This document shows, piece by piece, positions 48,888 through 52,943 of a DNA stretch of 64,000 nucleotides; the first letter of the stretch is position 1, and each line of letters starts with the position of its first letter. Both the position numbers and the translations under genes were made by a program. The notes under the pieces are model-generated. The model ran no database searches and was not told the DNA's origin. It saw nothing but the letters and a program-made list of their open reading frames with translations. This stretch comes from an uncultured Chloroflexia bacterium (GTDB lineage: Bacteria; Chloroflexota; Ktedonobacteria; Ktedonobacterales; JADMIN01). Where the stretch lies: contig CAVPBB010000020.1 in the NCBI GenBank assembly GCA_963701795.1, positions 71,727 through 135,726 of the forward strand, given 5' to 3'.

Positions 48888-51800
48888 ATGGCGACAGTTT
48901 CAAAAGGTTCGGAGTACAGCGCCAAGGATATCGAGATTCTGGAAGGTCTCGAACCCGTGCGCAAGCGTCCCGGAATGTATATTGGCAGCACCGATATTCG
49001 CGGGCTACATCATCTCGTGTATGAGGTCGTAGACAATAGCATTGATGAAGCAATGGCCGGTGTCTGTGATCGCATCATCATCACCATCAACGCCGATAAT
49101 TCGCTCACCGTGGACGACAATGGTCGCGGCATCCCCGTCGAGCCGCACCCCAAGACGCCGAGCACGTCTACCCTTGAGATCGTGATGACGACGCTGCATG
49201 CAGGCGGCAAGTTTGGCGGCGATGGCTACAAGCAAGGCTCGAGCGGCCTGCATGGCGTCGGAGTCTCTGCGGTGAATGCGCTCTCGGCCTTTTGCCGGGT
49301 TGAGGTGCGCCGCAACCACAAGCTCTACGTGCAGGAGTATCGCCACGGCGTGCCGAGCGCGCCCGTCAAGGCGGTTGGCCCGGCCACGGGCACAGGCGCC
49401 AGAGTGACCTTCCTGCCCGACCTGACGATCATGGAGACGGGCGACTTTCAGTTTGAGACACTCGCCGAGCGCTTCCGCGAGATGGCGTATCTCAACCGCG
49501 AAGTGACGATCAAGATCATTGACGAGCGCCCCGACCGCGAGCAGGATGCGACCTACTACTTCGATGGCGGGCTGCGCAGTTTTGTGCGCCACCTGAACAA
49601 GAATCGCAACGTGCTGATGGCGCGCCCGGCGTATGTCGAGCGCAAGGTGGACAAGTCCATCATTGAAGTGGCGCTCCAGTACAACGACAACTACAGCGAG
49701 ACGGTCTACTCTTTCGCGAACGGCATCAACACGGTGGATGGCGGCTCGCATGTGACGGGCTTCCGCGCGGCGCTGACCCGCACGCTCAACGAGTATGGGC
49801 GCAAGGCGAACCTGCTCAAAGAGTCGGACGCGAACCTGTCTGGCGACGATGTGCGCGAGGGGCTGACGGCGGCGATCAGCGTGAAGCTGCCTGAGGCGCA
49901 ATTCGAGGGGCAGACGAAGGGCAAGCTGAATAACGCCGAGGTGCGCACCCAGACGGAGATGGTTGTCACCGAGATGCTGGCGAAGTATCTGGAGGAGACA
50001 CCCTCTGAGGGCAAGCGCATCATCGAGAAGTGCCTCGGCGCTGCCCGCGCGCGCGATGCCGCCCGCCGTGCCCGTGAGCTGGTGCGCCGCAAAGATTCGC
50101 TCGACTCGACACTCCCTGGCAAGCTGGCCGACTGCTCTGAGCGGTCGCCGCAGCGCTCGGAGCTGTATCTGGTCGAGGGCGATAGCGCGGGGGGCTGCTT
50201 CTCTGGCGATACGCTGGTGGCGCTCGCTGATGGTCGCGCGGTCAGTTTTCGCGAGTTAGTCGCCGAGGCGGCGGAAGGCAAGGAGCACTTTGCCTATACG
50301 ATTCGCAACGATGGCAAGATTGGCCTGGAGCGCATCACACATGCGCGCATGACCAAGGCAAACGCGGCGGTTGTACGGGTGACACTGGACACAGGCGAAA
50401 CGATTACCTGCACGCCAGATCATCGCTTCATGCTGCGCGACGGCAGCTACAAGGCCGCCGCCGATCTGACACCCGATGATTCGCTGATGCCGCTCTATCG
50501 CAAACTCTCTGACATGGCTGAAGCGGGCAGCGAGGGGCGTGCCCGCGAGGCTGTGGCTCACTACAATCACCGCATCGTCTCAGTCGAGCGCCTCGACGAG
50601 ACAATGGATGTGTATGACCTGGAGGTTCCGGGGACGCACAACTTTGCGCTGGCCAGCGGTGTGTTTGTGCACAACAGCGCGAAACAGGGGCGCGACCGCC
50701 ATTTCCAGGCGATCCTGCCGCTGCGCGGCAAGATCCTCAACGTGGAGCGCGCGCGGCTCGACCGCATGCTCTCCAGTGAGCAGATCACGAACATCGTCAC
50801 CGCGCTTGGCACGAGCATCGGCGATACCTTCAGCACGGACAAGCTCCGCTACTGGCGCATCATCCTTATGAGCGTCGCGGGCAGCGAGCCAACGCTGCTG
50901 ATGGATGAGGATGGCCGCACCGAGTTGACGACTGTGGGCGCCTTCATAGACGCTTGCATCGAGGGCAAGCGCCTTGCTGAACGCTACCAGGTGCTCTCGT
51001 TTGATCCTGTGAGCCATGCGACGCGCTTCCGCCCGCTCAAGGCGGTCATCCGCCATACCCACGAGGAGCCGCTCTACACCATCACGACGCGCTACAACCG
51101 CAGCATCACGGTGACAGCCTCGCATAGTGTCTTCGCGCTGGAGAATGGCAAGGTCGTGCTGAAGAAGGGCGACCAGATTCGCCCAGGTGACACGGTGGTG
51201 GCAAGCCGCCGTCTGCCACGCCCAGACATGCCTCCGGCGGCGATTGACCTGATCGAGACGTTCTACCGCAGTGGCCAGGCGCAGTCACTCTATGTCACAG
51301 GCGAAGATGTGCGCCAGCTTGCCGCGAAGCGTGTGCTCGCTGGTGTGATGCGCGAGGACCTGTGGAGCGAGCCGCGCGTGACGTTAGCCGCCACTGGTTG
51401 GGCGCAGCTCACGGCGCATCGCGAGGCGGTCGGCGTGACACAGGCGCAGGTGGCAATGGCCACAGGCGCCAAACAGCCGATCACCGTTAGCCACTGGGAG
51501 CGCGGCGTCAATCGTCCCATCGCATCCCAATTCGAGCGCTACCTGGACGCGATTAGCTGGCATGATGAGATCGCCTATGAGACGATCCCCTCGAAAATCG
51601 ATGCCCTGTTGCAGCGCGACGATACGAGCGCAAACGCGCGCTATCGCAAGGTGAGTCGCACAACCTTGCTCAGTGATCTGACCCCGGAAGAGGTCGCGAC
51701 GCTTGGCTCAGATGCGCGTCTGGCGGCGCGCGCCCACCATGCGAAGGACTTTGCTCGCTACCTGCCCGTCACGCGCGACCTGATGTGGTTCCTGGGGTGG

Positions 51801-52943
51801 TATGCCGCCGAAGGAACCCTGAGCAAGCATCAGGTCAGCTTGAATCTGGGAGAGAAGGATGAGCGCTTCCTGGAGGAACTCTCGCAGGCCATCGAAAACA
51901 CCTTCGGTGAGACGCCACGACGTTACAACACGTTGGACAGTCACGGCTTCAAGTTCTACTTCCAGAGCGTAGTGGCGACGCGCCTGCTGCGCGCGTGGGG
52001 TCTCGATGGCCACGCGCACGAGAAGCGGATACCAGACATCGTGTACAGCCTCCCTGAGGACCTCCAGATGGCGTTCCTGGAAGGCTATTTCCTGGGCGAT
52101 GGTACGACAGCTGGCGAGAACATCAGCTTCACGACCAACTCGCCCACCATGAAGGATGGCCTGCTCTACCTGCTCGGCCAACTCGGGCTGGTCGCGTCCA
52201 CCAGCGAGATGCGCCCCTCCACACCGGAGGGCGCCGCCATCCAGACTCGCCACCCATACTACACCATCGCTCTCTGCGGCAAGCGGCAACTCGCCGACTG
52301 CCGCGCGCTCTGGGCGCGGCATGCCAATGCGCCGAAAGTTGATGCGCATCTCGCGCGCGAGGGCCACAGGGCGATGGACTACGTCGAGATCGGCGCGGAC
52401 CTCATGGGCCTCAGCGTGCTGACGGTCGAGGCGACGCAGCCCGATAGCCCCTATGTCTACGACTTCTCGGTCGAGGGCGACGAAAACTTCATCTGTGGCG
52501 CGGGCGGCCTCTGCGCCCACAACACGGATGCTGACGTTGATGGGAGCCACATCCGCACGTTGCTGCTGACGTTCTTCTTCCGCCATATGGAGCCGCTCAT
52601 CACCAATGGGCATCTCTACATCGCGCAGCCGCCGCTCTACCGCATTCAGGTGGGCAAGCAGCGGCACTACGTCTACAGCGACCAGGAGCGCGATGAGTTC
52701 CTGGCGCGGCTGGGGCCAGGCAAGAACGCGGCGGTGAATCGCTACAAGGGCCTCGGCGAGATGGACCCGGAGGAGTTGTGGGAGACGACGATGAACCCGG
52801 CGTCACGCACATTGCTCCAGGTGACAATTGAAGATGCGATCAAGGCTGATGAGACCTTCTCGATGCTGATGGGCGACGAGGTGATGCCACGCAAGCGCTT
52901 CATCGAAGCGCACGCGCACAACGTGAAGAATCTCGACGTATAG
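48888..52943 (+). CDS. gyrB: DNA gyrase subunit B precursor containing two inteins
   Basis: [107 protein letters not shown] and RYKGLGEM are all present in one frame. Extein length is 640 aa after removing 160 + 551 residues. Confidence 0.95.
50196..50675 (+). mobile_element. GyrB mini-intein (160 aa, no endonuclease domain)
   Basis: The junctions are EGDSAGG|[10 protein letters not shown]...TPDHRFML...ASGVFVHN|SAKQGRDR: Cys1, TxxH block B, terminal HN and Ser+1. Confidence 0.9.
50871..52523 (+). mobile_element. GyrB large intein (551 aa) with LAGLIDADG homing endonuclease and an HTH module
   Basis: The junctions are RYWRIILM|[15 protein letters not shown]...[10 protein letters not shown]...[13 protein letters not shown]...[12 protein letters not shown]...[24 protein letters not shown]|TDADVDG: Ser1, block B TxxH, two LAGLIDADG motifs, blocks F/G and Thr+1. 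Confidence 0.88.

Follow-up and report, generated by a model that had tools for sequence, protein, structure and literature searches.

A Ktedonobacterales gyrB gene interrupted at two Toprim motifs by predicted class-1 inteins

The gyrB precursor and its extein segments

The window analysed in this work is a 64-kb stretch of contig CAVPBB010000020.1 from an uncultured bacterium of the order Ktedonobacterales (Chloroflexota), and all positions given below refer to it. Its element of interest is a gyrB gene on the plus strand, encoded by a precursor open reading frame (ORF) at 48888..52943, in which three GyrB segments (exteins) alternate with two insertions, referred to here as intein 1 and intein 2. 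Translation yields 1351 codons and a stop (52941-52943) in an unbroken frame, corresponding to a protein of 1351 aa and 150.1 kDa with GyrB matches in Pfam and NCBIfam, in agreement with the initial annotation, which had described a single frame holding the GyrB motifs.

Profile searches with the unspliced precursor matched the Pfam families DNA_gyraseB, DNA_gyraseB_C and HATPase_c, together with only the last third of Toprim (profile positions 63-95 of 96, 26.9 bits), and reported TIGR01059, the gyrB equivalog, in two pieces (score: 896.9 bits; cut-off: 882.4). In the product spliced in silico, Toprim is recognized whole (positions 1-95 of 96, 61.9 bits) and TIGR01059 gives a single match (1-639 of 639, 934.3 bits), with both ParE equivalogs under their cut-offs (parE_Gpos, score: 751.9, cut-off: 899.95; parE_Gneg, score: 570.2, cut-off: 723.35). 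Since the spliced form passes the gyrB equivalog end to end and fails those of ParE, the host gene is identified by these profiles as gyrB and not as parE.

The N-extein (aa 1-436, 48888..50195) comprises the GHKL ATPase, the transducer and the start of the Toprim domain (Pfam HATPase_c and DNA_gyraseB), and ends in EGDSAGG (aa 430-436). The middle extein (aa 597-661, 50676..50870) corresponds to the Toprim core, from SAKQGRDR, which begins at aa 597, to LRYWRIILM (aa 653-661), and the C-extein (aa 1213-1351, 52524..52940) starts with TDADVDG at aa 1213, the DxDxD metal-binding motif of Toprim, and continues into the GyrB C-terminal domain (DNA_gyraseB_C). The initial observation that two Toprim motifs are split by in-frame inserts holds, all the junction strings quoted with it being found in the translation. 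Subtraction of 160 and 551 residues from 1351 leaves a mature GyrB of 640 aa with a calculated mass of 71.4 kDa.

When mapped on the 804-aa chain of E. coli GyrB (6rks_B), the first insertion falls between G430 and S431, and the second between M496 and T497. The Glu residue of EGDSAGG corresponds to the catalytic E424 of the E. coli enzyme, six residues before the first insertion, and D498-x-D500-x-D502, directly after the second insertion, is the metal-binding motif.

Two insertions with intein splicing motifs

The points of insertion are designated site a (intein 1) and site b (intein 2); these are labels of this analysis and not published intein-site nomenclature. Both insertions scored above the cut-offs of the intein profiles, namely Pfam Intein_splicing PF14890 (cut-off: 35.8; intein 1: 82.1 bits; intein 2: 58.9 bits), TIGR01445 for the N-terminal splicing region (cut-off: 24.5; intein 1: 51.4; intein 2: 30.2) and TIGR01443 for the C-terminal splicing region (cut-off: 15.6; intein 1: 33.6; intein 2: 26.1). 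Thus, the splicing domains expected from the initial annotation were recovered in both inserts, with LAGLIDADG_3 in addition in intein 2, and the proposed junctions do show intein blocks A, B, F and G. The class-1 junction rule on which that annotation relied was borne out as well: Cys1 or Ser1, a TxxH motif, the terminal His-Asn and Ser or Thr at position +1 are present in the window copy, and homologues conserve them (first residue and terminal His-Asn in 87 site-a inteins; S1, T82, H85, N551 and Thr+1 in 114 site-b inteins). On the strength of a standard N-terminal nucleophile and an Asp at position 4 of block F, both inserts are assigned to the class-1 inteins; a class-2 or class-3 mechanism was rejected for either of them, since the nucleophile is standard and block F position 4 is Asp rather than Cys.

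Intein 1 (site a, 50196..50675) is a mini-intein of 160 aa (aa 437-596 of the precursor, 17.6 kDa), which runs from CFSGDT to GVFVHN and splits EGDSAGG from SAKQGR. Its splicing residues are all present: Cys1 (Cys437), TPDH of block B (residues 73-76, 50412-50423), the terminal His-Asn (Asn596) of block G (SGVFVHN, 50655-50675) and Ser+1 (Ser597), with block F located at 50604-50651. The sequence can be aligned end to end with 1mi8, the Ssp DnaB mini-intein structure. Used alone as a query, intein 1 retrieved homologues that were for the most part short fragments and contributed little; among the site-a inteins that were extracted (n=87), Cys1 and the terminal His-Asn are found in all 87.

Alignment of intein 1 with the 435-aa site-a intein of a relative (L002) consists of two gapless blocks, residues 1-109 and 385-435 of the long form, with 85% identity, by which intein 1 is recognizable as a clean internal deletion derivative of a 435-aa HNH-type GyrB intein. 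It is devoid of residues 110-384 (~275 residues) and has no endonuclease domain. In the long form the missing segment holds an HNH-like motif, DHCHHLDFNKRNNNPTNL; the HNH assignment is based on visual inspection of this motif and on a weak match of the L002 intein to Pfam HNH_3 (E 0.007; score: 16.4 bits, cut-off: 24.8). Other mini-forms show varied deletion end-points, all within ~100-400 of the 435-aa form, and the pair 110-384 is shared by no other mini-form examined. This multitude of end-points indicates that the endonuclease at site a has been lost repeatedly and independently, with the splicing halves kept. The site-a inteins in P0001-P0120 and L001-L036 vary continuously in length between 145 and 436 aa. 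The identical GVFVHN terminus and the Ser-Ala that follows it mark intein 1 as a natural mini-allele of the Synechocystis GyrB intein, though not as a full member of that group, as judged from its lack of an HNH domain.

Intein 2 (site b, 50871..52523) comprises 551 aa (aa 662-1212 of the precursor, 61.2 kDa), runs from SVAGSE to GLCAHN, splits IILM from TDADVDG and contains a predicted homing endonuclease. Here too the splicing residues are complete, with Ser1 (Ser662), TASH of block B (residues 82-85, 51114-51125), the terminal His-Asn (Asn1212) of block G (GGLCAHN, 52503-52523) and Thr+1 (Thr1213); block F is at 52452-52499. The N-terminal HINT half (residues 1-121, 50871..51233) was delimited from the secondary structure of the model described below and TIGR01445, and the C-terminal HINT half (residues 505-551, 52383..52523) from the model and TIGR01443. 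Between the two halves lie a helical accessory domain (residues 124-290, 51240..51740) with a putative XRE-type helix-turn-helix (HTH; core ~51390-51551, motif 51429-51521) and a LAGLIDADG domain (residues 297-481, 51759..52313). The latter is matched by LAGLIDADG_3 (PF14528; 57 bits, in 2 stretches) and displays both LAGLIDADG motifs, the first (GWYAAEG, acid E314) at 51780-51821 and the second (YFLGDG, acid D410) at 52062-52109.

The closest sequence match of intein 2 in the PDB is PI-PkoII (2cw7, E 7.7e-28). An AlphaFold2 model built on 36 sequences reached a mean pLDDT of 92.8, and Foldseek reported intein homing endonucleases as its best structural matches (2cw7, PI-PkoII, E 1.5e-27; followed by TliVMA, 7qss; PI-PfuI, 1dq3; PhoVMA; and PI-SceI), with free LAGLIDADG enzymes and WhiA lower in the list. 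For the LAGLIDADG domain the structural matches include I-DmoI as well as PI-PkoII. The accessory domain, modelled with a pLDDT of 93, remains under the Pfam cut-offs in the window copy (HTH_31, score: 25.3, cut-off: 27; HTH_3, score: 19.9, cut-off: 23), while homologous inteins exceed that of HTH_3 (P0243, score: 47.2; P0247, score: 51.1). Its model exhibits the five-helix Cro/C1 fold and superposes on C.AhdI (rmsd 1.5 A, target-normalised TM-score 0.74), P22 c2 (0.71), HipB and SinR, with overall values of 1.5-3 A and 0.6-0.74; the corresponding Foldseek E-values are weak (0.04-0.3) because the domain is small.

Homologues of intein 2 (n=114) were taken by alignment to 50871-52523 from a sample ranked by likeness to the full-length query, which biases it towards full-length forms and under-samples degraded ones. 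Ser1, T82, H85, D531, N551 and Thr+1 are invariant in all 114, and the penultimate His of block G, present in the window copy, is replaced by Lys in 26 and by Arg in one. The catalytic acids, both retained in the window, are conserved in 103 (E314) and 110 (D410) of the 114 sequences, and the endonuclease of intein 2 is apparently intact. The lengths of the site-b inteins are nearly constant (544-564 aa) in the same proteins in which site-a inteins vary, a contrast that may partly reflect the sampling bias.

Occurrence, selection and genomic context

The genome scan covered one genome per GTDB species and yielded 79 loci, the closest of which all belong to Ktedonobacterales/Chloroflexota metagenome-assembled genomes (MAGs). 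An intein-free gyrB coding for 640 aa is found in ~36 of ~48 Ktedonobacterales species representatives. The best intein-free match to the spliced sequence, L008, exhibits 95.2% identity at the amino-acid and 89% at the nucleotide level, and its alignment is gapless codon for codon over both junctions, with both inteins exactly absent; at its empty site b, ...CGCATCATCCTGATG is followed directly by ACCGACGCTGACGTAGACGG.... Hence, the 640 residues expected after removal of the two segments are indeed a normal GyrB length, and close orthologues lack the segments exactly instead of retaining them, in the comparison that the initial annotation had called for. Other relatives carry an intein at site a only (435 aa in L002, L005 and L007; 146-164 aa in L003, L004, L006 and L036), at site b only (L011 and L080) or at both sites (L001 and L081). 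The coexistence of all these states with the empty one among relatives is the patchy pattern that constitutes, in comparative terms, a signature of mobile inteins.

Beyond the order, almost all of the best 120 whole-protein matches exhibit an insertion of ~548-551 aa at extein position 501/502, and most of them are also interrupted at 436/437; their hosts are cyanobacteria (Dactylococcopsis, Thermosynechococcus, Scytonema, Calothrix and others), Chloroflexota and Acidobacteria. Altogether, sites a and b are occupied singly or jointly in >100 public GyrB sequences, chiefly from Cyanobacteria and Chloroflexota. An exact-sequence look-up of the precursor, with either the ATG or the GTG start discussed below, found no identical protein on record. 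The double-intein architecture of gyrB is nevertheless not new, as both sites and both intein families are already in public data. Several of the intein-containing GyrB homologues bear such public names as "ATP-binding protein", "XRE family transcriptional regulator", "helix-turn-helix domain-containing protein" and "hypothetical protein", apparently wrong annotations that arose from the domains of the inteins.

Analysis of substitution rates gave a dN/dS of 0.073 for intein 1 (in comparison with L002), as expected if splicing must persist. For intein 2, where the estimate is a single pairwise comparison of the window with L080, dN/dS is 0.134 overall, with domain values of 0.10 (N-terminal HINT half), 0.145 (accessory/HTH domain), 0.136 (endonuclease) and 0.17 (C-terminal part). 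The values for the extein are 0.02-0.09. The purifying selection on all domains of intein 2 is consistent with a functional endonuclease. Extein identity is 86-99% to L080, depending on the segment, and 92% to L002, the C-extein being 99% identical to both.

Between the window and cyanobacteria, identity amounts to ~55% for the extein, ~60% for intein 2 and ~72% for the splicing region of intein 1; identity of the inteins across phyla that equals or exceeds that of the essential host protein indicates their horizontal spread. Over the short range, dS relative to L080 is similar for intein 2 (0.79) and the extein (0.49-0.77), which is compatible with vertical co-descent of intein 2 with gyrB within the nearest lineage. 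The GC content at third codon positions is 0.71 and 0.79 in the two inteins and 0.82 in the extein.

The HTH and LAGLIDADG intein family was also encountered in topoisomerase I (TopA; P0247 and P0256), at the homologous position of its Toprim domain. The TopA junctions read IFLA/SVDYEEPT...GGICAHN/TDPDREGE, to be compared with IILM/SVAGSEPT...GGLCAHN/TDADVDG in the GyrB of the window, and the Pfam Toprim match is broken at profile position 62 of 96 in both hosts. The shared family, the equivalent junction and the identical break suggest that one intein lineage has moved between the paralogous Toprim domains of GyrB and TopA. Another intein was noticed in a UvrD/PcrA helicase gene (L081:15306-18455), a few kb from the double-intein gyrB of L081, from which it follows that some of these genomes are rich in inteins.

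An insertion of a different kind, 113-224 aa long and near extein positions 556-572, occurs in GyrBs of other phyla (L053, L054, L061, L067-L072 and L078) and goes together with PF21249 (e.g. in P0011 and P0012); it is probably the known non-intein insert of GyrB. A third intein at this position was rejected for the window, from which the insertion is absent.

The mechanical list of ORFs opens the gyrB frame earlier, at GTG 48843. However, ATG 48888 is supported by sequence comparison as the true start: orthologues begin with MATVSK at the same ATG, in-frame stops occur directly upstream of it in two of them (L052 and L080), and a conserved Shine-Dalgarno sequence, GAGGAGGG, is found at 48867-48874. 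Alignment of 9 Ktedonobacterales loci delineated a conserved region at 48802..48887 (plus strand). It begins with an extended -10-like sequence, TGTGCTATTATAAG (48802-48815), and ends in a leader of 53 nt (48835-48887) that hardly varies and within which the Shine-Dalgarno sequence lies. The conservation of this region among the Ktedonobacterales loci exceeds that of synonymous sites within gyrB, and it may represent a conserved promoter or a regulatory element of the 5' untranslated region. A scan for consensus promoters and terminators gave nothing beyond the expectation from shuffled sequences, and did not flag the conserved region.

Upstream of gyrB the window contains priA, a gene of the BrkB family and queG, the last of which is found upstream of gyrB in L080 too. 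Downstream are genes for a HisKA_3 histidine kinase, a LuxR-type response regulator and an MMPL transporter, and the rest of the window is made up of housekeeping genes and one tRNA-Pro, so that the setting of gyrB is that of an ordinary chromosome. The kinase ORF begins 6 nt past the gyrB stop, and the regulator (54385-55077) has its start overlapping the end of the kinase ORF by 4 nt on the same strand, the pair spanning 52949-55077; given this spacing, co-transcription of gyrB with the two genes is possible. The arrangement is not kept in L080, where a different gene on the opposite strand follows gyrB. Neither other inteins nor other topoisomerase genes were found in the 64 kb, and a tblastn search of the same 64 kb with the extein did not reveal a second copy of gyrB.

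Interpretation and comparison with known systems

We interpret the locus as a chromosomal gyrB of Ktedonobacterales (soil Chloroflexota) that was invaded at two Toprim sites by two unrelated class-1 inteins, with a probability of roughly 0.93. According to this interpretation, the gene would be translated into a precursor of 150.1 kDa, which would fold and in which each HINT domain would start with an acyl shift (N-S at Cys437, N-O at Ser662), followed by transesterification to Ser597 or Thr1213, cyclisation of Asn596 or Asn1212 and, finally, an O-N shift. Ligation of the three exteins would then give the GyrB of 640 aa and 71.4 kDa, in which EGDSAGG/SAKQGR and IILM/TDADVDG are contiguous, with free inteins of 17.6 and 61.2 kDa as by-products. 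Because one insert lies inside the Glu motif of Toprim and the other directly in front of DxDxD, assembly of the DNA-cleavage centre should have to await the excision of both, and active gyrase should need both splicing events. Intein 1 would have lost homing together with its endonuclease and would persist only through obligatory splicing. Intein 2 probably still cuts intein-free gyrB at the sequence coding for IILM/TDADVDG and is copied in by repair, as suggested by its intact motifs, the dN/dS of its endonuclease and its sporadic distribution.

Some points weigh against this interpretation. Splicing, endonuclease activity and homing are deduced for the window copy from its sequence, and the view of 64 kb leaves room for a second, intein-free gyrB elsewhere in the genome. 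Besides, the HTH assignment is just under the Pfam gathering score in the window copy and the Foldseek E-values of the domain are poor, and the bias of the site-b sample is such that the rarity of degraded site-b inteins cannot be shown. The second of these points would matter most if one or both inteins were dead in splicing and the gene were a dead or dying copy, with GyrB supplied from outside the window; loss of the endonuclease from intein 1 also testifies to degenerative evolution in this very gene. We consider such a course very unlikely, as the frame of 1351 codons is intact with all splicing residues in place, purifying selection acts on both inteins (0.07-0.13) as well as on the exteins, the putative promoter, the leader and the Shine-Dalgarno sequence are conserved with intein-free orthologues, and the locus is syntenic, with queG upstream, with the single gyrB locus of relatives. 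An assembly chimera, in which foreign intein sequences were joined into the gyrB contig, might be suspected from the fact that the nearest relatives are MAGs, but is extremely improbable: the insertions preserve the reading frame and begin and end precisely where canonical inteins do, their third-position GC differs little from that of the extein, and the same double-intein plan recurs in independent assemblies (L001, L081/P0003) and in cyanobacterial isolates (e.g. P0046).

The idea that both segments are lineage-specific domains kept in the mature protein, like the non-intein insert of proteobacterial GyrB, derives some appeal from the insertion of ~145-220 aa that GyrBs of other phyla keep near extein positions 556-572, where it co-occurs with PF21249. 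It is effectively refuted, and we give it next to no credence, given that the segments match intein splicing profiles, are bounded by Cys or Ser and by His-Asn with Ser or Thr following, interrupt Toprim at its catalytic Glu motif and at DxDxD instead of in a surface loop, are exactly absent from 95%-identical orthologues and, in the case of intein 2, model as an intein homing endonuclease. A further reading is co-option of intein 2, in addition to or in place of a selfish existence: the module with HTH and LAGLIDADG, released 1:1 with GyrB, could have been domesticated as a WhiA-like DNA-binding regulator, or conditional splicing could gate gyrase and couple its maturation to the state of the DNA. 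The near-constant length from Chloroflexota to cyanobacteria, kept also in topoisomerase I at the homologous Toprim position, would fit such a role, as would the purifying selection that acts on the HTH region and the endonuclease, in contrast to the repeatedly decaying endonuclease of site a, the presence of WhiA among the structural matches, and the clustering of inteins in motifs critical for function, a placement said by some to permit regulation (PMC4760082). Yet, both LAGLIDADG acids are kept here and in ~90-96% of homologues, which suggests a functional nuclease and not a protein that only binds DNA, most Ktedonobacterales species are without the intein and therefore without a function fixed in the whole lineage, HTH-like accessory domains are established in selfish homing-endonuclease inteins (PMC8966425), and the constancy of length is possibly an artefact of ranking with the full-length query. 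We regard both variants of co-option as very unlikely; if either were true, the decay at site a and the retention at site b would reflect function and not sampling.

The gene should be annotated as an intein-containing gyrB with a mature product of 640 aa, and not as a 1351-aa "ATP-binding protein" or "XRE family regulator". It adds an example from Ktedonobacterales to the known multi-intein replication proteins and a natural 160-aa mini-version of a GyrB intein used in biotechnology, and together with its relatives it forms a comparative series, with decay of the endonuclease at site a and its retention at site b, that is usable for studies of the intein homing cycle. By itself the locus opens no new biological question. 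Inteins at these two positions of GyrB have been documented before and are frequent.

Intein 1 resembles the Ssp GyrB intein of Synechocystis sp. PCC 6803, a class-1 intein with Cys1, which is likewise located in GyrB after EGDSAGG and before Ser-Ala and ends in GVFVHN with Ser at +1. The natural Ssp GyrB intein, in which an HNH endonuclease was reportedly identified by Dalgaard et al. in 1997, has 435 aa, and its length class is that of the 435-aa relatives of intein 1 (e.g. L002). The GVFVHN terminus of the Ssp intein and the SAG that follows are documented (PMC2794532), and its mini-intein has been found experimentally to splice (PMC3620165). The differences are that intein 1 is a natural mini-form of 160 aa from a Chloroflexota host, whereas the mini-intein of the cyanobacterium Synechocystis was made in the laboratory, as was its S11 split intein. 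More generally, a published survey counts 33 inteins in the GyrBs of Actinobacteria, Chloroflexi, Cyanobacteria and Proteobacteria (PMC4760082), gyrB inteins are known from Thermosynechococcus (PMC9403480), and one gyrB intein allele spans bacteria and haloarchaea (PMC4071816).

For intein 2 the closest systems in sequence and structure are PI-PkoII/PI-TkoII from the polymerase (Pol) of Thermococcus kodakarensis (2cw7) and TliVMA (7qss), with which it shares a HINT domain interrupted by an endonuclease with two LAGLIDADG motifs and a helical HTH-like accessory domain. The identity is, however, only 14-19%, and those inteins are archaeal and reside in a polymerase or a V-ATPase, not in GyrB. 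HTH-like accessory domains of homing-endonuclease inteins are thought to contact DNA; in VMA inteins the accessory domain follows the endonuclease and precedes the C-terminal HINT half (PMC8966425), whereas in intein 2 a putative XRE/Cro-type HTH follows the N-terminal HINT half and precedes the endonuclease.

The arrangement as a whole is matched by other double-intein GyrBs, namely those of Dactylococcopsis salina (P0046, 1359 aa), a Ktedonobacteria MAG (L001) and a metagenomic sequence (P0003), which have the same sites and intein families in the same order, a site-a intein with Cys1 followed by a site-b intein of 551 aa with Ser1. The nearest of them, P0003/L081, exhibits 83% identity in the extein, 71% in intein 1 and 68% in intein 2. 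A broader parallel is provided by the multi-intein replication proteins of Trichodesmium, RIR (Ter RIR-1 to -4) and DnaE (Ter DnaE-1 to -3) (PMC3620165), which are likewise essential proteins of DNA metabolism that depend on several splicing events and carry their inteins in the most conserved catalytic motifs (PMC4760082, PMC3620165), but differ from the GyrB described here in the host proteins and in the intein lineages involved.

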